From sequence record MW679410.1: a stretch of DNA of 64,000 nt. One strand, 5' to 3'. A model generated the notes under the pieces. The model was given only the letters and a program-made list of their open reading frames with translations, had not been told where the DNA came from and did no database searches. Below, in pieces: positions 4,480 to 62,880 of the stretch. The translations under genes and the position numbers were made by a program. The number at the start of each line of letters is the position of its first letter. Position 1 is the stretch's first letter. Origin of the DNA: Escherichia phage C6.

Positions 4480-4509
4480 ATTATACCCTGTCCTCTGAGG
4501 GTTGTAAAC
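4480..4509 (-). promoter_or_regulatory. early-type sigma70 promoter (GTTTAC -N18- TATAAT) for gene 3844..4437
   Basis: -35 GTTTAC and -10 TATAAT read on minus strand, -10 embedded in short inverted repeat. Confidence 0.45.
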
Positions 4510-4785: not shown

Positions 4786-4969
4786 ACATGGCAGCCCAAT
4801 CAGTTTTTGCCAAGTTGAAAGTAAGAGCTTTCTCTAATTCTTTGGCAGCTTTTTGTTGTTCAGGTGTTAATGAATTATACAACTCTTGCATTTCTTTATC
4901 TTCGATATTCATTATGTTCTCCTCAAATTACGGGCTCATAATATCTTAATCATGAGCCCATGTAAACTT

Positions 4970-5268: not shown

Positions 5269-5297
5269 ATAGTATCATGTTTAAAGTAGGTGTAAAC
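5269..5297 (-). promoter_or_regulatory. early-type promoter GTTTAC -N17- TACTAT
   Basis: Motif read on minus strand upstream of gene 4970..5233. Confidence 0.45.
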
Positions 5298-5356: not shown

Positions 5357-5974
5357 TTATTTACGGGTCTTTTCGAACTGAGCGGCGTCACCAGCAAGGC
5401 GGCGTGCTTGACGAAGTTTGTTGTCGATTTCTTCGTGCATAGGCTGGGTATACTTAAGGCCTTCAACCGTCAGATAGAGACGATAAAGGTCTGGGGTATC
5501 CAGGTTGTTAATGTGCTGTCCGTTACGAAGAGCATTGAACTCTCGAACGAGTTGTTTAGTTTCAGATTCGATTTCCGAAACCAAAGAAGCCAGTTGATTA
5601 TATTTTTTAACTATAGTGCTGGTGTCAAACTTGATTTTAGGTTTAGGAGCTTCTTTTACCGGTTCGGCTTTAGGCGTTGGTTTCGGCGCTGCAACTTTGG
5701 TCTGGGCCACAGGTTTAGCAACAGGAGCTTTAGCTGGTTTAGCAGGCTTAGTAGCGCCGCCAGCTACGATATCTTTAAAAGCTTTGGAAGCTTTGTAATA
5801 TTCTTTCTGGTTACTAGTATCAAAACCATACATATCATAAACGTTTTTAAAGAACTCAGTACTAGTTTTAGCCCCAGAAATTTTATCATAAGCGGCTTGC
5901 CACATATCTTTAGTCATGCGCACGCCGGCTTCAGTCAGAATGTTTTCGTTCAAAAATTCATTGTAAGTTTTCAT
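5357..5974 (-). CDS. capsid internal protein, IPIII-like, with N-terminal capsid targeting sequence MKTYNEFLNE and Ala/Pro/Lys-rich low-complexity linker
   Basis: N-terminus matches the T4 internal-protein targeting sequence MKTYQEFIAE as recalled; position between tRNA cluster and early genes. Confidence 0.7.
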   Translation of the reverse strand: MKTYNEFLNENILTEAGVRMTKDMWQAAYDKISGAKTSTEFFKNVYDMYGFDTSNQKEYYKASKAFKDIVAGGATKPAKPAKAPVAKPVAQTKVAAPKPTPKAEPVKEAPKPKIKFDTSTIVKKYNQLASLVSEIESETKQLVREFNALRNGQHINNLDTPDLYRLYLTVEGLKYTQPMHEEIDNKLRQARRLAGDAAQFEKTRK

Positions 5975-6002
5975 TATTGTTTCCTGTGTTAATTAACTTA
6001 TC

Positions 6003-8220: not shown

Positions 8221-8250
8221 ATAGTACCATCACTAGAGCCCGTTGTAAAC
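8221..8250 (-). promoter_or_regulatory. early-type promoter GTTTAC -N18- TACTAT
   Basis: Motif on minus strand upstream of 7999..8184 operon. Confidence 0.45.
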
Positions 8251-8789: not shown

Positions 8790-8818
8790 ATAGTATCATG
8801 CCTATAGACCTTGTAAAC
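8790..8818 (-). promoter_or_regulatory. early-type promoter GTTTAC -N17- TACTAT
   Basis: Motif on minus strand upstream of internal-protein genes. Confidence 0.45.
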
Positions 8819-40128: not shown

Positions 40129-41688
40129 ATGAAAAAGAATGCATTAGTTCAAAAATGGTCCGCTCTGCTGGAAAACGAAGCCCTTCCTGAAATCGTGGGT
40201 GCTTCTAAACAAGCTATCATCGCTAAAATTTTCGAAAATCAGGAACAAGACATCCTGACTGCCCCGGAATACCGTGATGAAAAAATCTCCGAAGCATTTG
40301 GTTCTTTCCTGACCGAAGCTGAAATTGGTGGTGACCACGGTTATGATGCTACCAATATCGCAGCTGGCCAGACTTCTGGTGCTGTAACTCAGATTGGGCC
40401 GGCAGTAATGGGTATGGTTCGTCGTGCTATTCCTCATCTGATTGCTTTTGATATTTGTGGTGTTCAGCCTCTGAATAACCCTACCGGCCAGGTATTTGCC
40501 CTGCGCGCAGTTTATGGTAAAGACCCTATTGCTGCTGGCGCTAAAGAAGCTTTCCATCCGATGTATGCTCCGAACGCTATGTTCTCTGGTCAGGGCGCTG
40601 CTCAGACTTTTGAAGCACTGGCTGCAAGCAAAGTTCTGGAAGTTGGTAAAATTTATTCCCACTTCTTCGAAGCTACCGGTTCTGCACACTTCCAGGCTGT
40701 TGAAGCTGTAACCGTTGATGCAGGCGCTACTGATGCCGCTAAACTGGATGCTGCTGTTACCGCTTTGATTGAAGCTGGTCAGTTGGCTGAATTGGCTGAA
40801 GGTATGGCTACTTCTATCGCTGAACTTCAGGAAGGTTTTAACGGTTCCCAGGATAACCCGTGGAACGAAATGGGCTTCCGTATCGACAAACAAGTTATCG
40901 AAGCTAAATCCCGTCAGCTGAAAGCAAGCTACTCTATCGAACTGGCACAGGACCTTCGTGCAGTACACGGTATGGATGCAGATGCTGAACTGTCCGGTAT
41001 CCTTGCTACCGAAATTATGCTCGAAATCAACCGTGAAGTTATCGATTGGATTAACTACTCTGCACAGGTTGGTAAATCTGGTATGACCAACACCGTTGGC
41101 GCTAAAGCTGGTGTGTTTGACTTCCAGGACCCGATTGATATCCGTGGTGCTCGTTGGGCCGGTGAGAGCTTTAAAGCCCTTCTGTTCCAGATTGATAAAG
41201 AAGCAGCCGAAATCGCTCGTCAGACCGGTCGTGGTGCTGGTAACTTCATCATCGCTTCCCGTAACGTAGTTAACGTACTGGCTGCAGTTGATACTTCTGT
41301 AAGTTATGCAGCTCAAGGTCTGGGTCAAGGTTTCAACGTTGACACAACCAAAGCAGTATTTGCCGGTGTTCTTGGTGGTAAATATCGCGTTTACATCGAC
41401 CAGTATGCACGTTCCGATTACTTCACCATCGGTTATAAAGGCGCTAACGAAATGGACGCAGGTATCTACTATGCTCCGTACGTTGCACTGACCCCGCTGC
41501 GTGGTTCCGATCCGAAGAACTTCCAACCGGTAATGGGCTTCAAAACTCGTTACGGTATCGGTATCAACCCGTTTGCTGACCCGTCTGCACAGGCTCCTAC
41601 CAAACGTATTCAGAGCGGTATGCCTGACATCGTTAACAGCCTTGGTCTGAATGGTTACTTCCGTCGCGTATATGTTAAAGGTATCTAA
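40129..41688 (+). CDS. 23: gp23 major capsid protein
   Basis: Strong similarity to recalled T4 gp23. Confidence 0.97.
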   Translation: MKKNALVQKWSALLENEALPEIVGASKQAIIAKIFENQEQDILTAPEYRDEKISEAFGSFLTEAEIGGDHGYDATNIAAGQTSGAVTQIGPAVMGMVRRAIPHLIAFDICGVQPLNNPTGQVFALRAVYGKDPIAAGAKEAFHPMYAPNAMFSGQGAAQTFEALAASKVLEVGKIYSHFFEATGSAHFQAVEAVTVDAGATDAAKLDAAVTALIEAGQLAELAEGMATSIAELQEGFNGSQDNPWNEMGFRIDKQVIEAKSRQLKASYSIELAQDLRAVHGMDADAELSGILATEIMLEINREVIDWINYSAQVGKSGMTNTVGAKAGVFDFQDPIDIRGARWAGESFKALLFQIDKEAAEIARQTGRGAGNFIIASRNVVNVLAAVDTSVSYAAQGLGQGFNVDTTKAVFAGVLGGKYRVYIDQYARSDYFTIGYKGANEMDAGIYYAPYVALTPLRGSDPKNFQPVMGFKTRYGIGINPFADPSAQAPTKRIQSGMPDIVNSLGLNGYFRRVYVKGI

Positions 41689-41704
41689 GATATAACCTTA
41701 TTAT

Positions 41705-41722
41705 GGGAGACTTCGGTCTCCC
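41705..41722 (+). terminator. hairpin GGGAGACUUCGGUCUCCC + U-rich after gene 23
   Basis: Read directly. Confidence 0.55.
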
Positions 41723-41737
41723 ATTCTTGTTTCTGTA

Positions 41738-42004
41738 CTATGCAATCTTAACTCGACGATTGATGATATCACGGAAGTCAATACGATTTTCTTGGATTTT
41801 CAGCCAGTTACCAGATTTGTCTTTGGTATGGGTAGAGTATTCACCGTTCCACCAGAAGTCAGTTTCATAAGCTAGGGCTTCGTATTTCTTAACCAATGCA
41901 TTAACTGCATTACCGTTAGGATTGGTACCAAATTTTTCTACCAGAGCTTTGATGTCTTTGTCAAGGTTAGAAAGTGTAGTACGGATAAAGTTTAATTTGT
42001 TCAT
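41738..42004 (-). CDS. hypothetical protein (88 aa) antisense-oriented between genes 23 and 24
   Basis: ORF track trimmed to ATG 42004 with GAGGAG SD; own early-type promoter upstream. Confidence 0.5.
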   Translation of the reverse strand: MNKLNFIRTTLSNLDKDIKALVEKFGTNPNGNAVNALVKKYEALAYETDFWWNGEYSTHTKDKSGNWLKIQENRIDFRDIINRRVKIA

Positions 42005-42033
42005 TTTTAATCTCCTCATGTTTTGATAGGTCT

Positions 42034-42063
42034 ATAGTAACACGACGCTTTTTGTGTGTAAAC
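42034..42063 (-). promoter_or_regulatory. early-type promoter GTTTAC -N18- TACTAT
   Basis: Motif on minus strand. Confidence 0.45.
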
Positions 42064-42069
42064 CACTTT

Positions 42070-42077
42070 TATAAATA
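42070..42077 (+). promoter_or_regulatory. late promoter TATAAATA for gene 24
   Basis: Exact box upstream of ATG 42107. Confidence 0.6.
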
Positions 42078-42106
42078 AAATTATATTCTCAATAAGGAAA
42101 ATAGCA

Positions 42107-43387
42107 ATGGCTAAAATTAACGACCTTTTAAAAGAGTCGACCACTACTTCGAGTTCTTCGATTGGTCGTCCAAATTTAGTAGCTTTAACCAGAGCTACGA
42201 CCAAACTGATTTATACCGACCTTGTAGCTCAGCAGCGTACTAACCAACCTTTGGCTGCTCTATATGGTATCAAATATCTTACAGAAAAAAACGAATTATC
42301 TTTCCAGACAGGTGCTACTTATTCTGGTGCAGTATCCGCTAAAGACCGTGCCTCTATCCCAGTTTTCACTGCAGGTGCTGTTTACGCTAAAGATGATTTG
42401 TTCCAATTTGAAAACGTAGTTTATAAAGCTTTGGTAGCAACACCATTTGCAGGTGCTACTGGCGATGAATACGAACAACTTCAAGAAGCTATTGTTAAGT
42501 TGACTATTCGTATTATGTCCGAAGCCGCACTGACTGAGCGTTTTGAAGGCCTCCAGGATGTAGATGTTTCTGAAGCCAAATTCGTCGTTAATAAATGGAA
42601 CGCTCCAGTTAAATCCCGTAAGTTGAAGAGTACTGTTACTGTAGAACTGGCTCAAGACCTCGAAGCAAATGGTTTCGATGCCCCTAATTTCTTGGAAGAC
42701 CTCCTGGCTACTGAAATGGCTGATGAAATCAACAAAGATATTCTTCAGTCCCTGGTTACGGTTTCCAAGCGTTATAAAGTTGAAGGTTTGTGTGATGACG
42801 GCTTAATTGACCTGAGTTATGCTAACTCACCGGAAGCTTCTCGCAAGCTTTATGAAATAGTTTGTGAAATGGTTTCTCATATCCAGCGCGCAACCTCTTA
42901 TACGGCAACTTATGTAGTAGCGAGTACTCGCGTAGCCGCTGTTCTGGCTGGTTCTGGCTGGTTAAGACATACCCCACAGAACGACAAATATCTTTCTGCA
43001 AATGCATACGGATTCCTGGAAAATGGTTTGCCTGTGTATTGTGATACCAACACGCCAATTGATTATGTTACTGTAGGTGTTAAAGAGGAATTTGGTGGGA
43101 AAGAAGCAGTAGGTTCTTTGTTCTATGCGCCGTATACAGAAGGCCTTGATTTGGCTGACCCTGAACATGTGGGTACATTTAAAGTGGTCGTTGACCCTGA
43201 AAGCCTGCAACCATCTATTGCATTAATGGTTCGTTATGCACTGGCTGCTAACCCTTATACGGTTACTTCCGATGATAAACAAGCCCGTATTATTGATGCG
43301 ACTAATATGGATTTGATGGCGGGACGTTCTGATATGTCCGTATTGCTTGGTGTGAAACTTCCTAAAGTTTTGACTGAATTAAACTAA
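42107..43387 (+). CDS. 24: gp24 capsid vertex protein
   Basis: Size and synteny. Confidence 0.95.
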   Translation: MAKINDLLKESTTTSSSSIGRPNLVALTRATTKLIYTDLVAQQRTNQPLAALYGIKYLTEKNELSFQTGATYSGAVSAKDRASIPVFTAGAVYAKDDLFQFENVVYKALVATPFAGATGDEYEQLQEAIVKLTIRIMSEAALTERFEGLQDVDVSEAKFVVNKWNAPVKSRKLKSTVTVELAQDLEANGFDAPNFLEDLLATEMADEINKDILQSLVTVSKRYKVEGLCDDGLIDLSYANSPEASRKLYEIVCEMVSHIQRATSYTATYVVASTRVAAVLAGSGWLRHTPQNDKYLSANAYGFLENGLPVYCDTNTPIDYVTVGVKEEFGGKEAVGSLFYAPYTEGLDLADPEHVGTFKVVVDPESLQPSIALMVRYALAANPYTVTSDDKQARIIDATNMDLMAGRSDMSVLLGVKLPKVLTELN

Positions 43388-43389
43388 CA

Positions 43390-43413
43390 AAAAAGGGACC
43401 TTACGGTCCCTTT
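43390..43413. terminator. bidirectional hairpin GGGACCUUACGGUCCC flanked by A6 and U3
   Basis: Between convergent genes 24 and rnlB. Confidence 0.55.
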
Positions 43414-43419
43414 GTCGTC

Positions 43420-44424
43420 TTACGACACTAATTCAATCCATACTGCTCGTAGGGTATCTTTTACACACTCAACGAGCTGCTTTTTAACTTCAACAGGATT
43501 TTCTGCATCGGTTAATTCTAATTCTTCACGGGCGGCTTCTTCTAAGATATCTTGGACTGTCAAGCCCATTACCTTTCCGAAATCCTTTTTAGATACTTCG
43601 CCAATCTTACTGATGACATTATTAATGCGGTTAACAGTCACATAATCGGTGAATTGCCACATCAAATCCATATCGTCTTGGGATAAAACTACCACAGTCT
43701 TGATAGGCTTATCGGACTTTTTCTTCTCGCTGAATTTAGAGTTCTTACATTTAATCGCTACGCGATTTCCGTTTGGAAGCCAGGTAGGAATATCAGGTTT
43801 AAGTACAAAGCCTTCGGCTGTAAATACTTTACCTTCTACCTTAGGAATAAAGTCTGTCGAGTTTGCAATAGTTAGGCCAGCGTTATCCACTGCAAAATTA
43901 TAATCAGGAATAACTGAATCAAAGTCGTTAGGTAATTTAATAAGGTCTTCAAAGCTACCGGTGGCCAGACATGGAGCTACCTTAAACTTATGGATAATAC
44001 AGAAGGCTTCCATCAATGTATCGGTTAGAACAGATTCTGAACCATCTTCCTTAGTAACTCGGATATCGAACACATAAAAGTCTTTATCGCCGTAGTCCAC
44101 ATTCTTCTGGATACCTGTCCCAGCGAATTCGCCATAAATCTGGTACGACTGATAATTAATCGATTCAATTAGATGTTGAACAGATTTAATAGAATCAGCA
44201 TAGTTCTTAAGTACAATTTCATAACCATAGAAATCTTCAGCAGGGAGGATAGGGCCAGTGCGCTTGGCGCATGTGACTGCGTCACGTTCTATGATTAAAC
44301 TAAAGTTGGTTCCATGAATCTTCTCACGTGCCACCCATTCACCACTGGTCAAACCATTAGTACGGAGTTTTTCGATAAACTTACTGTTGTAGTGGTTTTC
44401 GAGACTGCTATATTTCTTGAACAT
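43420..44424 (-). CDS. rnlB: RNA ligase 2 (Rnl2)
   Basis: Nucleotidyltransferase motif I KIHGTN; very high similarity to recalled T4 Rnl2. Confidence 0.95.
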
Positions 44425-44748: not shown

Positions 44749-44834
44749 AACAATTCTCTCGTTGAGTTGGTAAAACCCATCTTAACATAGAATTTTTAAC
44801 TTGTAAACAGGAATTTTGTACTTTAACGCAAAAT

Positions 44835-56271: not shown

Positions 56272-56562
56272 TTATTTACGGAACGAAATGAAACCTGCTG
56301 TGGTCATTAGCGGTTGCTTTTTAACAAACACCGTAACTGAAATAGGAGCTTCAGATTCGAGTTGTCCTGTCACTACACCGTTAAAAATGTTTTCGGTTTG
56401 TTCTGGATGAGAAAAATTCTCAACAGGTCGGATATCAAACTGTTTGTCTTCACCGAAAACTCGACGTAATTCATTACCCACTGCACTGTCAAACTCTTCA
56501 GAAGCAGGGATAACGTTTTCAACTACCAGTTCTTGACCATTAAAACGGAATGCAGATTTCAT
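56272..56562 (-). CDS. hypothetical protein (96 aa)
   Basis: ORF track; GGAG SD; early-type promoter upstream. Confidence 0.5.
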   Translation of the reverse strand: MKSAFRFNGQELVVENVIPASEEFDSAVGNELRRVFGEDKQFDIRPVENFSHPEQTENIFNGVVTGQLESEAPISVTVFVKKQPLMTTAGFISFRK

Positions 56563-56590
56563 AATGTTCTCCTCATGTTTGTGTAAGGTA

Positions 56591-56620
56591 ATAGTACCAC
56601 ATCCTTGTGGTGTTGTAAAC
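56591..56620 (-). promoter_or_regulatory. early-type promoter GTTTAC -N18- TACTAT
   Basis: Motif on minus strand. Confidence 0.45.
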
Positions 56621-58743
56621 TACATTTTGAATTTATTTGGCAGAGCAGAGATATCCAAAGATGCAGCAAGGATTTCCATAGCTTCGTTGCTTTCAGAAAC
56701 GGATTCATTAACCAAGAATTGACTGAATCCATGCATCAGGCGAACTTCACCAGTTTCCATCAAATGGTCGCCATCGTAAACAGATTCGCTGAGCTCTGAA
56801 GGAGGTGTTACTGTAGCTTCCATAAGATATTTGTGAGATACCCTATCATTCATAGCAAAAGCCGCTACTTTATCAACCTTCAACAATAATCCACGCGGAA
56901 GGATAATTTCTGCTTCTTCGGCATATTCTGTAAGGTCACCAGGAGCGATAACTTTAACTGCTTCAGCACCTCGAATAACCATACCAATTTCAGCAATTCT
57001 ATCCGCAGGACCTTCAGGTGCAATTGGATTACCAAACTCGTCTTCTTCCCATTCTACCTCTTCGTCATCGACTTCACCCACATCAGATGAACTACCACTA
57101 GCCAATTTAAACAACTCATCAGCGGAGGATAAAGAACCTTCACCACCAACAAAAACGGCTTGGTTGTCGAGGGCCATATAATTTTTACCAAATTCACCAA
57201 AGATGTTAGGCTTTAATGAGGCTGACACAAAGTTCTTAAAGTAAAATGTTTTGTTATCGATATTATGACGCAGAATTTTGTATGGCAAATCCTGACCACG
57301 ATACAAAATAGTACCCTTAGGAAGTTTAATACCCTTAGTAAATGCTGAGTCTAAATCCTTAATCAATTTAATAGCCGTTGTATTGTTTTCGGATTCAGGT
57401 TTACCTAAAAGGAACAAGTTCATAGGAGCATATTCAGCTGCGCAATATTCAATAATAGCATTGCTTTCGTCTTTGGTTAGGTCCTTAGGTTTAATGAGCT
57501 CACCTGAATAAGCATATGCATCACTAATAGAATCGTTAATTAGTTTATAAACGGCTTCCATAGCGAAAGCAATTCGAGAGGCCTTTTCTGAAGGGGAGCC
57601 TTTAAAACGGGTACTCAGGTTATTAACAATTTTCTTAATAATATCCAGACTATTGGTTGTATTGATTTGCGAAAGACCGCTTAAAAGTCTATCGACTTCT
57701 GTATTAAAAAATGCCATATTATTAGAGTAAATTTCAAACCCTTGTTTATCTCTATTAGCATAATTTAGTTTAAATTTACTATCAGTCATTAAAGCGTGCG
57801 TGAGAGCAATGGTGTATCTAAAGTTGGCAAGGTCCTCGCTCTTAGATTTAAACTGAGAAGCCTGGCGCATTTTGGTAATAGCACCTTTTTTAAAGTTCTG
57901 ACTAATCTGTTCAATACCTTCATTCTCAGGGCCTTCAGCCGTGTGAACCGGTACAGAAGCTTCAAACTCGTTATAAACCTGCAATTCTTTAGGGGACAAA
58001 GTTTCAGGCTCAGCAGTAGAATACTGCGCGGCTGCTGCCATACGACGCGAAATCTTAGTACGAGTAATGACAGCCTTATCAGTACGTTTTTCTTCAACTT
58101 GTGCAATAGATGCCGCTACGGCTTCGACCTTACTTACGGCCTGGCCGGTTTTCTTAGAAACATACACTTCGCCAACTTTAGACTCAACTTTAGTATAAAG
58201 ATCGGCATTAATTTCAGGCATACCCTTGATATCTTCAATATTAGCCCCGCGACGTACTAAAAGAACGTAGGTATGTTTTCCGCTGAATTGGAACATGTCG
58301 TCAACAACTTTAAACTTACCACCGGTACGGGCCATAGCCAAACGAGCTAATACGCGCTGAACGGTAGGGCCTTTACCTTTCATTTTCTTAGTAGGGAAAC
58401 GGAATAAAACCGCGTCCATTTTAAGTTTGTTTATTTGTTCATATATGGTATCGAAAATGGTGTTCAGTGTACCGAGTGGATCGGTACCCAAACCACCCTT
58501 GAGTTCTGCCGGAGCGCCTTTAGCAGATAAACTCATTAAGATAACATGGACGTACTTATCGCCCGCCTTAACCATCTTAATAGCGTCGCCTTCAGACGCA
58601 TAAGATACCATACGTGCTACTAAATTGTCATTACCAGGAGCATGTACCGCAAAAATCTGCGGTACGCCTGAGCCAGGTTTAAGATTTGTTACTGGGTAAT
58701 TTTTTTTATCACTTTTATCAAAAACTTCGTTTAAATTTTCCAT
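56620..58743 (-). CDS. alt: Alt-like ADP-ribosyltransferase, paralog 3 (707 aa)
   Basis: Location between gene 54 and gene 30; R-S-E-type motifs (YRGQ, FVSASL, EAEIILP) in C-terminal third; N-terminal ~235 aa shared with two upstream paralogs. Confidence 0.75.
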   Translation of the reverse strand: MENLNEVFDKSDKKNYPVTNLKPGSGVPQIFAVHAPGNDNLVARMVSYASEGDAIKMVKAGDKYVHVILMSLSAKGAPAELKGGLGTDPLGTLNTIFDTIYEQINKLKMDAVLFRFPTKKMKGKGPTVQRVLARLAMARTGGKFKVVDDMFQFSGKHTYVLLVRRGANIEDIKGMPEINADLYTKVESKVGEVYVSKKTGQAVSKVEAVAASIAQVEEKRTDKAVITRTKISRRMAAAAQYSTAEPETLSPKELQVYNEFEASVPVHTAEGPENEGIEQISQNFKKGAITKMRQASQFKSKSEDLANFRYTIALTHALMTDSKFKLNYANRDKQGFEIYSNNMAFFNTEVDRLLSGLSQINTTNSLDIIKKIVNNLSTRFKGSPSEKASRIAFAMEAVYKLINDSISDAYAYSGELIKPKDLTKDESNAIIEYCAAEYAPMNLFLLGKPESENNTTAIKLIKDLDSAFTKGIKLPKGTILYRGQDLPYKILRHNIDNKTFYFKNFVSASLKPNIFGEFGKNYMALDNQAVFVGGEGSLSSADELFKLASGSSSDVGEVDDEEVEWEEDEFGNPIAPEGPADRIAEIGMVIRGAEAVKVIAPGDLTEYAEEAEIILPRGLLLKVDKVAAFAMNDRVSHKYLMEATVTPPSELSESVYDGDHLMETGEVRLMHGFSQFLVNESVSESNEAMEILAASLDISALPNKFKM

Positions 58744-58746
58744 TAT

Positions 58747-60792
58747 TTACCCTTGGGTGAATTTTTCTGGGATTTCGTCAAAATTAATACATGAAGCCAA
58801 AAGAGGCATTATATCCACCTTGGTCGATTTGACAAATGAATCAAAAGACACAGGGTTGTCGGTCTCTGTTTCTACGCCTTGGTAAACAACCAATTCGCCG
58901 GTTTCCATCAATGCATCACCATCATAGATAACCGCATTTTCTGCTAGTTGGTCTGTGGTCTGGATATCAGCTTCCAATAATTTGGTGTTGTAGTTTCCTT
59001 TATATGAGGCATCTGTAATTTTAGTAATCTTAACAGTAGTTCCACGTGGAAGAATAACCTCTTGTTCTGTTGGAGAACCTGACAATTCACCGGGCACAAT
59101 TACGTTAATAGAGTCTGCACCGGAAATTTTCCAACCGATGTTCATCATTGTATTTTCGGAACTCGTCAGCATACTTGGAAGAACAATTTCATTATCGCCT
59201 TGGAAAGATGTCCCAACGCGATAGTCCTGATGAACTGCGGCCATTGCGACGTTTGATACCCAGCCGCCAAAGATAATCGGCTTAAGGGACGTTGATACAT
59301 AGTTCCTGAAATAAAACAATTTTGAGTGTTTGATTTTATCAAAAGTGTTAACATTTAAATATTGACCACGCCAAAGTGTAATATCAGGTGGCAATTTATG
59401 GCCAATTTCAAATGCCGCATCCATATCATTAATTACTTCAATTACGCGATAACTATCAATAAATTCTGCATCCTCTTCATAATAATTACCCAACAAATAA
59501 TTATTAACATCGGTATAATATTGGCCGCAATAAGAAGAAATAGCCTCACGCTGCTCATACTCAAATCGATTATCGCTATAACTGGCTGTAAAATGCATAA
59601 CACTTTCTGACGCTTCATTAGCAAAATCGGTAACAGCAGCACTTATACGTTGAGCATACTCTTGTTCCCAAAGCTCTGCCGCATATTCGGCCGCATCCAT
59701 ATTAGGAGGAGCCTCATTCATTTTTCTTTCGATAAATGCAGCTTTGCGAAGGTTAAGAACCTCTGCACATGATTCGGCAAAAATCTGCATCTGCTTCATA
59801 CTGCCGACAGGAGCACGTTTAAGTTCACGATGCATACGGTTAAAAATTGGGTCAGAGTCTTCGACTCGAATTTCTTCTTTCCAAACACCGTTTGCTCGCA
59901 TAGCCATATCTGCCGCGCGCATACGCTCCATAGTATTCGTTTCAGAAGGTTGAATAAAAATTTCTAGTTCTTCATAATCGTCGATAAGTTCCGCTGTTGC
60001 TGGGGCACTAAATTTTGATGCCTCTGCATCAATCTCATTCCAACCTTCCGGAACTTCATCTCGAGGAGAATACTGGGCTGCGGCTACAGCACGCCTAGAA
60101 ATCTTGGTAGTAGTAATAACGGCCTTATCCGTACGTTTTTCTTCGACTGCCGCTATACTAGCAGATAGTGCTTCTATTTTGGTTACCGATTGGCCTGTTT
60201 TCTTGGATACATAAACCTCACCAACTTTAGACTCAACCTTAGTGTAAAGGTCTGCATCAATTTCAGGCATACCTTTTATGTCCTCAATATTAGCTTGTTT
60301 ACGAACCAGTAAAACGTATGTATGTTTGCCTGTAAATTGATACATATCATCGACAACTTTAAACTTGCCGCCAGTACGAGCCATCGCCAAACGTGCCAAT
60401 ACACGTTGAACAGTAGGACCCTTACCTTTCATTTTCTTGGTAGGGAACCGGAAAAGAACTGCATCCATACGAAGAGCTTTAACTTGTTCGTATACAGTAT
60501 CGAAAATGGTGTTCAGTGTACCAAGTGGGTCAGAACCTAACCCGCCTTTCAACTCGGCTGGGGTACCCTTAGCAGACAAACTCATCAAAATAACATGAAC
60601 ATATTTGTCGCCCGGCTTAACCATTTTAATAGCGTCTCCTTGAGACGCATAAGATACCATACGAGCAACCAGATTATCATTACCTGGTGCTTGGATAGAG
60701 AAAATCTGTGGAATACCGGAACCCGGTTTAAGATTTGTTACTGGATAGTTTTTAGCGGAATCACTATCAAAAACCTCATTTAAATTTTCCAT
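58747..60792 (-). CDS. alt: Alt-like ADP-ribosyltransferase, paralog 2 (681 aa)
   Basis: As above; motifs WRGQ, YVSTSL, DNEIVLP. Confidence 0.75.
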   Translation of the reverse strand: MENLNEVFDSDSAKNYPVTNLKPGSGIPQIFSIQAPGNDNLVARMVSYASQGDAIKMVKPGDKYVHVILMSLSAKGTPAELKGGLGSDPLGTLNTIFDTVYEQVKALRMDAVLFRFPTKKMKGKGPTVQRVLARLAMARTGGKFKVVDDMYQFTGKHTYVLLVRKQANIEDIKGMPEIDADLYTKVESKVGEVYVSKKTGQSVTKIEALSASIAAVEEKRTDKAVITTTKISRRAVAAAQYSPRDEVPEGWNEIDAEASKFSAPATAELIDDYEELEIFIQPSETNTMERMRAADMAMRANGVWKEEIRVEDSDPIFNRMHRELKRAPVGSMKQMQIFAESCAEVLNLRKAAFIERKMNEAPPNMDAAEYAAELWEQEYAQRISAAVTDFANEASESVMHFTASYSDNRFEYEQREAISSYCGQYYTDVNNYLLGNYYEEDAEFIDSYRVIEVINDMDAAFEIGHKLPPDITLWRGQYLNVNTFDKIKHSKLFYFRNYVSTSLKPIIFGGWVSNVAMAAVHQDYRVGTSFQGDNEIVLPSMLTSSENTMMNIGWKISGADSINVIVPGELSGSPTEQEVILPRGTTVKITKITDASYKGNYNTKLLEADIQTTDQLAENAVIYDGDALMETGELVVYQGVETETDNPVSFDSFVKSTKVDIMPLLASCINFDEIPEKFTQG

Positions 60793-60795
60793 TAT

Positions 60796-62880
60796 TTACC
60801 CTTGGATGAATTTTTCTGGGATGTCATAGAGGTCTATGCATGAAGCCAAAAGAGGCAGTACATCAAACCGTGTAGATTTAACAAATGAATCAAAAGATAC
60901 AGGGCTTTCGGAAGTATCGAAGTCATCTTGATATACGACCAACTCGCCGGTTTCCATTAGTACGTCACCATCATATACCACAGATTCTTGAAGCTCATCT
61001 GTTGTCATAACTTCAGCTTGGATGAGTTTTGTATTACTAGATGTTGTTCCATCATTATTAGAAGCATCTGTTATTTTATTAACTTTGACCATTAATCCAC
61101 GCGGTAGAATAACTTCGGCTTCAGTTGCTATTCCGAGATTTCCTGGATATACTACATTAACTTTATGAGCCCCATCAATAGCCCATCCTATTTGAACTTT
61201 AACGTAATCAGGATTTTCCTTATACGCCCTTATTTCATTAGGGTTAATAGTTATTCCTTCTTCATTTTTATCGACTGTCAATTCATTACGAACTTCCGGT
61301 TCTAAAAGACCGATACCAGCGTGTGTAACACCAAATCGTCCAAAAATGATAGGGGTTAAAGAAGTAGATACAAAATTTCTGAAATAGAACACTTTATTTT
61401 TAACTAGTGCTTCGTATATAGGAGCAGTCATACTCTGTGCACGATAAACTGTAATGCCTTCTGGTATACGGTCACCATTTTCAAAAGCAGAATCCAAATT
61501 ATTAACTGCAGATTCGATATCTTTTTCGCTCATAACCTCATAGTTCTGAGGATTATAACGTCCTAAAAGAAGATTATTTATGTCTGTATATCCTGAACCA
61601 CAATATTCTCTGATGCCGCGCTTTTGTGATGGGGTATATTTAGAGCCCTCACGAGCAATAGTAATATCGACCATAATACCACCACCCACACCAGCAAAAC
61701 TATATACACGTTTTTTAATGAACTTGGTCTTGGCGGCTTTCCACTTCGCATCGGTCAATTCATTCCAGAGGTCGTCAGGTTGGCCTTTACGAGTTTTGTT
61801 ATGCCGGGCCAGCCATTCACCTTTGTATTCTTCGAAAACGGTATTAATAGCAGAGGCATATTTTTCTAGAGCTTTAACAGATGTCAAAGGTTCGTTTTTG
61901 ATGGCCGTAAGAATTTTATCTTTAATTTTCTCTTGGATTTCACCTATACCGTGAAGAGGAAACATTTTATAATCGTAATGCAATTCTTCAGCAGTGCCTT
62001 CAGCCACTATATTAGCAACCTTATTTTTAGCCGCAGGAGAATTGTTATTAGTAACCATTTCCTGAGCCTCAGGGATTAATGGAACTGTTGCTGGTTTATT
62101 AAAATCCGCTGCAGTAGCTTCATATTTCTTAAACAATTCACTTTCATTACGATAAGATTCCAATGATTGGCTTGCTGCAATAGCACGTCGCGAAATCTTA
62201 GTCTTGGTTATAACCATTTTATCAGTGCGACGTTCTTCAACCTTAGCAATACTGCCGGCAATAGCAGTTTCTTTAGTAACCTGCACACCTTCTTTTTTGG
62301 AAATATAAACTTCACCGACATCAGAATCTACCTTAGTGTATAATTCGGAATTAATTCCTGGCATACCTTTGATATCTTCGATATCAGCTTGTTTACGAAC
62401 TACTAAGATGTAAGTATGTTTACCGGTAAATTGGTACATAGCCGGAACTACTTTAAAACGTCCACCAGTTTTCTGTGCTACCAAACGTTGGATAATCCGT
62501 TGGACAATAGGTCCTTGTCCTTTCATTTTCTTGGTAGGAAAACGGAACATCACGGCATCCATACGAAGCTTTTTAACTTGGTCATAAACCACATCAAAAA
62601 TAGTATTAATCGCATCTACGGGAGTAGGGCCAAGGCCACCCTTAAGTTCGGCCGGAGTACCTTTAGCTGAAAGGCTCATAAGGATAACGTGGGCATATTT
62701 ATCACCCATTTTAACTTGTTTAATAGCATCACCTTCAGAAGCGTAGGATACCATACGCGCGACCAATTGGGATTCAACGTCTCCAATTTTCCAAATCTGG
62801 GGTACTTTAAGTTTAGGGTTCAAGTTTACTGTAGGCAGAGTGCCTTCGGACTCAAACACTTCATTTAATTGTTCGGTCAT
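60796..62880 (-). CDS. alt: Alt-like ADP-ribosyltransferase, paralog 1 (694 aa)
   Basis: As above; motifs YRAQ, FVSTSL, EAEVILP. Confidence 0.75.
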   Translation of the reverse strand: MTEQLNEVFESEGTLPTVNLNPKLKVPQIWKIGDVESQLVARMVSYASEGDAIKQVKMGDKYAHVILMSLSAKGTPAELKGGLGPTPVDAINTIFDVVYDQVKKLRMDAVMFRFPTKKMKGQGPIVQRIIQRLVAQKTGGRFKVVPAMYQFTGKHTYILVVRKQADIEDIKGMPGINSELYTKVDSDVGEVYISKKEGVQVTKETAIAGSIAKVEERRTDKMVITKTKISRRAIAASQSLESYRNESELFKKYEATAADFNKPATVPLIPEAQEMVTNNNSPAAKNKVANIVAEGTAEELHYDYKMFPLHGIGEIQEKIKDKILTAIKNEPLTSVKALEKYASAINTVFEEYKGEWLARHNKTRKGQPDDLWNELTDAKWKAAKTKFIKKRVYSFAGVGGGIMVDITIAREGSKYTPSQKRGIREYCGSGYTDINNLLLGRYNPQNYEVMSEKDIESAVNNLDSAFENGDRIPEGITVYRAQSMTAPIYEALVKNKVFYFRNFVSTSLTPIIFGRFGVTHAGIGLLEPEVRNELTVDKNEEGITINPNEIRAYKENPDYVKVQIGWAIDGAHKVNVVYPGNLGIATEAEVILPRGLMVKVNKITDASNNDGTTSSNTKLIQAEVMTTDELQESVVYDGDVLMETGELVVYQDDFDTSESPVSFDSFVKSTRFDVLPLLASCIDLYDIPEKFIQG

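Follow-up and report, generated by a model that had tools for sequence, protein, structure and literature searches.

A conserved small gene with an early-type promoter between capsid genes 23 and 24 of Escherichia phage C6, and its relationship to segD

Background

Why does a T4-like phage carry a small gene with an early-type promoter on the opposite strand between two of its late capsid genes? In a 64,000-nucleotide stretch of Escherichia phage C6 (MW679410.1; hereafter the window), the 418-nt gap between gene 23 and gene 24 contains an 88-aa open reading frame (ORF) on the minus strand. The initial annotation, made from the sequence alone, described this ORF as an early-promoter-driven gene located where T4 has the homing endonuclease gene segD, with a transcript running antisense toward the 3' end of gene 23. 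Here we consider what the gene encodes, how it may be expressed, how it is distributed among related phages, and how it is connected to segD. The 601 bases around the locus are 99.5% identical to Escherichia phage AnYang, and by its sequence the window matches a Dhakavirus of the JS98/JS10 group. The features discussed below are as follows.

40129-41688, plus strand: gene 23 (major capsid protein), the left flank
41703-41724: hairpin common to the two convergent genes, 13 nt past the ORF stop
41738-42004, minus strand: 88-aa protein-coding gene of PHROG 6003 (JS98 ORF173c / JS10_0170 family), from the ORF list and its translation
42005-42017, minus strand: translation initiation region, GAGGAG (42012-42017) and a 7-nt A-rich spacer before the ATG, from the sequence
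42034-42063, minus strand: T4-type early (sigma-70) promoter, GTTTACA, 17-nt spacer, TGT-TACTAT, from motif enrichment, a shared block, and conservation
42070-42077, plus strand: late promoter of gene 24, TATAAATA, pointing away from the early promoter, from the sequence
42107-43387, plus strand: gene 24 (capsid vertex protein), the right flank
56272-56620, minus strand: second locus, early promoter GTTTACA..TGGTACTAT (56591-56620) and a 96-aa ORF (56272-56562), an ortholog of T4 alt.-3

Results and discussion

A conserved protein-coding gene in the gene 23-24 gap

The 88-aa ORF and its GAGGAG ribosome-binding site are present in the gap as initially described, with the start ATG at 42002-42004 and the stop TAG at 41738-41740 (minus strand). 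The protein has a mass of 10.3 kDa and a pI of 9.5, and it matches the PHROG 6003 profile over its full length (E 2.2e-49; residues 1-88 against profile positions 1-88 of 90). The gene is not new; it has been annotated since JS98 and JS10, and the existing annotation in AnYang, JS10, VR7, and others is "hypothetical protein". In AnYang the annotated form has 93 aa and begins at an in-frame ATG further upstream (42017-42019). Since this upstream ATG overlaps the ribosome-binding site and is missing from the Gapriver- and Mosigvirus homologs, the 88-aa form has the better start.

Strong purifying selection acts on the ORF, with pairwise dN/dS values of 0.04-0.13 within the Dhaka- and Gapriverviruses; synonymous sites are near saturation in comparisons between genera. 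In an alignment of 20 family members, a VNGNAxN motif between the first two helices, A45, and Q71 are all conserved. The AlphaFold model of the protein (pLDDT 94.2, pTM 0.80) has the order helix, helix, beta-hairpin, helix. Taken together, the PHROG match, the homologs, the dN/dS values, and the confident fold identify this as a true protein gene.

The homology and structure searches proposed in the initial annotation thus yielded a conserved family (PHROG 6003) and no structural relative in the PDB or BFVD. Sequence searches of the PDB, with the single protein and with the family profile as queries, returned no match, and neither did searches of Pfam, NCBIfam, and PADLOC for a function of the family. 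The protein resembles neither SegD nor any GIY-YIG, NUMOD, or HTH domain. Membership in Pfam DUF5380 was considered and rejected, the match being partial (12.7 bits, E 0.12) and below the gathering threshold of 29 bits; similar sub-threshold matches occur in 5 of the 20 family members. An exhaustive phmmer search over 1.8 billion representatives recovered members of the family and three sequences that were rejected on inspection, two as repeat-protein artefacts (P0009 and P0013) and one as probably chimeric (P0010). The family HMM detected no paralog in the window and none among the six-frame ORFs of T4; a partial 12-bit match at 5360-5992 is not meaningful. Literature searches by locus tag or PHROG identifier returned no publication on this gene.

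An early-type promoter back to back with a late promoter

The promoter initially described as GTTTAC-N18-TACTAT is present upstream of the gene, and the same site can be read as TTTACA-N17-TACTAT. Its -35 element GTTTAC occupies 42058-42063 and its -10 element TACTAT occupies 42034-42039 (minus strand), the latter preceded by TGT (an extended -10), and the transcript is predicted to start near 42027. The T4 early consensus has GTTTAC at -36 to -31, and early promoters of their own are common on novel ORFs of T4-like phages (PMC1524935). Upstream of the -35 element the sequence (TATAATTTTATTTATAAAAGTG) is A/T-rich, and the late promoter of gene 24 falls, in reverse complement, within this A/T-rich region. 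As the initial annotation had it, the two promoters stand back to back, with 6 nt separating TATAAATA from the -35 hexamer; gene 24 starts with the ATG at 42107.

Scans with a generic sigma-70 consensus are uninformative in A/T-rich DNA, where shuffled sequence yields as many sites. The early motif GTTTAC-N17-19-TANNNT occurs 11 times in the window versus 2.9 expected, a count reached in 0 of 100 shuffles. Eight of these 11 sites have GTTTACA on the minus strand, each with TG one base before the -10 hexamer. Four minus-strand promoters (at 5297, 8250, 8818, and 42063) have in common a 21-nt block, TACTATAG(A/C)CCTATCAAAACA, which spans the -10 element and the beginning of the transcript. We also aligned ten loci, with taxa from the Dhakaviruses (AnYang, EcoM005, JS10, Bp7, and VR5), the Gapriverviruses (VR7 and SP18), and the Mosigviruses (TU01), plus the region upstream of T4 segD. 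GTTTACA, the spacing, and a TAnnAT-type -10 element are kept in the Dhaka-, Gapriver-, and Mosigviruses of this alignment while the spacer sequence varies freely; GGAG and AAAATGA are kept in 10/10 aligned relatives, T4 segD included, and TATTTATA is invariant at the gene 24 late promoter. Its sequence, the enrichment in the window, and the conservation in relatives support the assignment of this promoter to the phage's own early class, suggesting that the 88-aa gene would be expressed early.

The translation initiation region, GGAGATTAAAA, agrees at 10 of 11 positions with GGAGRAYARAA, the consensus of strong RegB sites (PMC3014915). As predicted from this motif, the mRNA of the 88-aa gene fits the RegB-controlled early type; regB was not found in the 64-kb window. 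A second promoter-like site, TTGCTA-16-TATAAT at 42080-42107 (minus strand), was rejected both as a promoter and as a MotA box. What is conserved in it belongs to the start region of gene 24 on the opposite strand, its -10 element is not conserved, and its spacing is unsuited to a MotA box.

A hairpin shared by convergent genes

The stop codons of gene 23 and the ORF are 49 nt apart, and the hairpin at 41703-41724 falls within those 49 nt. For gene 23 it forms a canonical intrinsic terminator. Read in the ORF sense, it is simply a hairpin, because it is followed there by AUAAUAAGG (tail AUAAUAAGGUUAU, without a U-tract). An intrinsic terminator being a G+C-rich hairpin with a U-tract behind it, this hairpin is not one for the minus-strand transcript of C6. 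The predicted transcript does point toward the 3' end of gene 23, as originally proposed. However, read-through into gene 23 has not been conserved, since in the Gapriverviruses VR7 and SP18 the same hairpin is followed in the ORF sense by TTTTTATTT, a T-run, making it a bidirectional terminator.

Beyond gene 24, another hairpin with a T-run is located at 43392-43413, after rnlB and just past the gene 24 end, and an early-type promoter, GTTTACA..TGTTAAGAT, is found at 44779-44808 (minus strand) upstream of the 24.3/rnlB minus-strand unit. A single gene 24 followed by rnlB is present in this window (42107-44424), AnYang, and SP18; gene 24 is duplicated in tandem in JS10, VR7, Bp7, VR5, and two metagenomic relatives.

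Distribution and exchange of the cassette

Searches with tblastn located the 88-aa gene in about 130 Dhaka- and Gapriverviruses and a Mosigvirus version in about 120 further records. Homologs in these three genera occupy the gap between genes 23 and 24. Large protein collections contribute a few extra metagenomic members of the family, and P0023 and P0008, on T4-like metagenomic contigs, are likewise encoded on the opposite strand between genes 23 and 24. The comparison of this gap across relatives, which the initial annotation had called for, shows that the ORF is conserved and that the gap exists in four states. Nothing lies in the gap of most Tequatroviruses (FL12) and of a Jiaodavirus, in which TATAAATA comes immediately after the terminator of gene 23. 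In T4 and T6 the gap contains segD alone. The 88-aa gene is present by itself in this window, JS10, Bp7, VR5, VR7, SP18, TU01, and two metagenomic T4-like contigs. The 88-aa gene is followed by segD in EcoM005, IME341, 04086, and IME08.

Exchange between genera is recorded in the Tequatrovirus vB_EcoM-G28 (L024, MG867727). The 3' end of gene 23 and the 5' end of gene 24 in this phage are 98% identical to T4, and the module between them (553-970 of L024) is of the Dhaka type, 90-98% identical, with the terminator, the 88-aa gene, and both promoters. The breakpoints coincide with the stop codon of gene 23 and the ATG of gene 24. The cassette thus moves between phages as a unit, and the G28 mosaic suggests that this exchange probably uses homology in the flanking capsid genes.

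The gene has also decayed. In RB69 (L018, NC_004928, 8292-8532), ORF188c and ORF189c are a frameshifted copy with two indels, in which the promoter, ribosome-binding site, and start codon are intact over the broken ORF; a promoter kept in this way could have a role of its own. The 88-aa gene is dispensable, because the RB69 copy is frameshifted and T4 has no homolog (family HMM against six-frame ORFs).

Relationship to segD

As stated in the initial annotation, T4 has segD in this gap, in the minus-strand orientation, and C6 has the 88-aa gene instead. The Dhakavirus SegD ortholog is 57% identical to T4 SegD. GIY-YIG Pfam matches are weak for both proteins, and only the SegE_GIY-YIG match of T4 SegD clears the curated cut-off. 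The 88-aa protein itself was rejected as a GIY-YIG (Seg) homing endonuclease, having no Pfam match.

In the phages with both genes, 3 nt separate the ORF stop from the segD ATG, and segD has been inserted exactly between that stop and the hairpin. With this placement Dhakavirus segD is without a promoter of its own and must use that of the ORF. In T4, the region upstream of segD (L007, NC_000866, 6233-6323, minus strand) contains ATTTACA-N17-TGATATTAT, GGAG, and AAAATGA, and aligns with the promoter and initiation region of the cassette. According to a 2010 review, no segD-specific promoter could be found in T4 (PMC2988022). The simplest history, we infer, is that the small gene and its promoter are the older residents of the gap, that segD was inserted behind them, and that the T4 line then lost the small gene.

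Recoded flanks (window 41674-41760) are common to all four of the segD-positive Dhakaviruses (L002, L025, L026, and L027). The 3' end of the ORF reads ..AAAGCAGCGTAA in three of them and ..AAAGCGGAGTAA in 04086, versus ..AAGATTGCATAG in segD-negative phages. The last four codons of gene 23 are AAGGGAATTTGA in the segD-positive Dhakaviruses versus AAAGGTATCTAA, and all of these changes are synonymous. This recoding looks like the target-site immunity associated with homing endonucleases, and we predict that the Dhakavirus SegD cut site would be at or near GTTAAAGGTATCTAA (the gene 23 end) or at the 3' end of the ORF. T4, which is segD-positive, retains an unrecoded gene 23 end. As a separate observation, tblastn alignments to segD-positive Dhakaviruses end at residue 72 of the 88-aa protein, although the EcoM005 protein matches the query without a difference through residue 86.

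Comparison with known systems

The locus is like the T4 segD locus in occupying the same gap, in having the same minus orientation relative to the late genes 23 and 24, and in having the terminator hairpin of gene 23 on one side and the gene 24 TATAAATA on the other. The two differ in content, since T4 encodes a 223-aa GIY-YIG endonuclease there and has no 88-aa homolog, and in the -35 element, which is ATTTAC in T4 and GTTTAC here.

A similar arrangement had been proposed at 56272-56620, between gene 54 and alt. The similarity is borne out for the promoter and the type of ribosome-binding site but not for a position within a late cluster, as the second gene is an alt.-3 ortholog that is co-directional with its neighbors at the tail of the alt early unit. 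Its 96-aa product is 58% identical to T4 Alt.-3 and matches Pfam DUF5498 (E 3e-34), and its early promoter (56591-56620) abuts the alt stop codon. The 88-aa gene resembles alt.-3 and other small T4 early ORFs in its promoter (GTTTACA..TGGTACTAT type), ribosome-binding site CATGAGGAGA, similar size, and convergence on a late gene. In contrast, DUF5498 is an unrelated family, and alt.-3 ends a long early unit rather than standing alone in a late cluster. Near this second locus, T4 Alt.-1 matches 58399-58743, 60448-60792, and 62698-62874 (minus strand), and Alt.-2 matches the first two of these. The T4 annotation describes Alt.-1 and Alt.-2 as copies of the alt N-terminus, which suggests that there may be three tandem alt-like genes in this phage.

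PeSL and ORFan cassettes have been described for RB49/phi1 and other T4-like phages (PMC2839356, Arbiol et al. 2010; PMC4122927, Comeau et al. 2014). The locus in C6 shares with them a small gene of unknown function, a strong sigma-70-like early promoter of its own, an A/T-rich upstream region, and a closing stem-loop, as well as a variable location with gain, loss, and exchange between relatives (the four gap states and the G28 swap). However, unlike in PeSL cassettes, the promoter has no stem-loop inside or adjoining it (fold -8.5 kcal/mol, z -0.81), the flanks are core late genes with no second PeSL beside the ORF, and the breakpoints of the G28 swap coincide with the stop of gene 23 and the start of gene 24. 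The missing stem-loop (z -0.81) rules out a PeSL identity in the strict sense for the promoter at 42063. Elsewhere in the window, the promoters at 4480-4509, 4938-4967, 8221-8250, and 8790-8818 (minus strand) have strong inverted repeats enclosing the -10 element (z -3.1 to -6.1) and are PeSL-like.

Members of the 88-aa family in Acinetobacter phage ABPH49 and in a metagenomic Logan contig are located inside long same-strand arrays of small ORFs. The Logan contig ERR2737659_215 (L017, 4880-5340), which is not T4-like, encodes a distant homolog with a promoter-like site upstream. This site consists of GGCGGGG-GGTTTACTT-CCCCGCC followed by TATTAT, so that the -35 element is within the G/C stem, as in PeSLs; a GGCCCC..GGGGCC hairpin is found downstream of the gene. 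The cassette is also comparable to the morons of lambdoid phages, as in both cases one non-essential gene, equipped with a promoter and a terminator of its own, is inserted on the opposite strand between two genes of another unit. Lambdoid morons are typically expressed from prophages, whereas this cassette is an early gene of a lytic phage.

Alternative explanations

The position of the early promoter raises the possibility that the function of the locus is at the RNA level, with the promoter directing antisense RNA into the 3' end of gene 23 or interfering with the late promoter of gene 24, thereby delaying or damping capsid expression, and with the ORF being secondary. The short distance between the early -35 element and the late TATAAATA, the Dhakavirus hairpin without a U-tract in the ORF sense, and the RB69 promoter kept over a frameshifted ORF are consistent with such a role. 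However, the protein is under strong purifying selection, its homologs in unrelated phages are encoded away from capsid genes, most Tequatroviruses have an empty gap, and early promoters have already been shut off when late-gene transcription begins (T4 biology; PMC3014915). Antisense control of gene 23 is itself unlikely because the hairpin in the Gapriverviruses VR7 and SP18 terminates in both directions, and we regard an RNA-level role as improbable overall. Transcription from this promoter might alternatively prime DNA replication in the manner of oriE and oriG of T4; the RefSeq record of T4 annotates primer RNAs at both, antisense to the late genes 5 and 34. No origin feature was found at the C6 locus, its promoter is of the early type, and the only nearby match resembling a MotA box (42080-42107) is explained by the start region of gene 24 and is not conserved. 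The constraint on the ORF is at the protein level and the cassette is absent from most Tequatroviruses, which makes origin priming highly implausible.

The proximity of segD could instead mean that the ORF is functionally part of the SegD homing element, as its partner, its immunity factor, or its landing site. T4 segD has the same location and orientation behind a homologous promoter-like sequence, segD starts directly behind the ORF in four Dhakaviruses, and the segD-positive alleles share recoding at the 3' end of the ORF and in the last four codons of gene 23. Most carriers of the ORF, including those in other phage types, are without segD, however, and purifying selection acts on the ORF where segD is absent. 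A functional tie is unlikely because most carriers lack segD and because the ORF has no nuclease or DNA-binding domain, and the association is best read as segD using the promoter of the cassette. The remaining explanation, a chance ORF beside a chance promoter match, draws on the equal yield of generic sigma-70 scans in shuffled and real sequence; against the protein family, selection, confident fold, conserved signals, and specific enrichment of the early motif, its probability is negligible.

A probable self-contained early accessory cassette

We favor the interpretation that the locus is a self-contained early accessory gene cassette, expressed early in infection, with a product that works at the protein level on a macromolecule of the host or the phage. 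The probability of this reading as a whole is roughly 0.65, and most of the doubt concerns its last step, the action of the protein on such a macromolecule. The cassette comprises the early sigma-70 promoter, the GGAG-type initiation region, the 88-aa ORF, and the hairpin, placed between the terminator of gene 23 and the late promoter of gene 24. Unmodified host RNA polymerase would start at about 42027 (minus strand) right after infection, and the resulting short mRNA would give a compact 10-kDa basic alpha/beta protein. Synthesis would stop with the shut-off of early promoters, and probably also through RegB cleavage at the GGAG ribosome-binding site; considering how well GGAGATTAAAA fits the RegB consensus, synthesis would end after a few minutes. 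Selection would act on the function of the protein, which is most likely a dispensable accessory factor of the host-takeover or counter-defence type, and antisense read-through to gene 23 would be a by-product. In some Dhakaviruses, segD has been inserted 3 nt behind the ORF stop and so uses the ORF promoter, while in T4 segD stands alone behind the related promoter-like sequence.

A bolder and doubtful, though conceivable, extension is that the 88-aa protein founds a family of early effectors with a new structure, perhaps inhibiting a host defence or host machine, and is carried in a cassette that spreads among three or four Tevenvirinae genera and unrelated Acinetobacter-type phages and serves as a natural promoter donor and homing platform for SegD. 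If true, this would account for the unusual antisense placement of T4 segD as well as for its unrecognised promoter.

Conclusions

The 88-aa gene is an ordinary small early accessory cassette of T4-like phages, of a well-known kind. By itself it matters little, being one more conserved hypothetical early gene of this group. Its confident 10-kDa fold without a relative in the PDB or BFVD, together with its clear expression logic, recommends it as an easy candidate when early effectors of phages are screened. The sharp G28 mosaic shows that exchange between genera can involve an entire intergenic module between two core capsid genes. The greatest use of this analysis lies in its side results on segD. 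T4 segD is located behind a degenerate copy of the cassette promoter and Dhakavirus segD would ride on the ORF transcript, and this promoter comparison bears on how, and whether, segD is expressed and homes.
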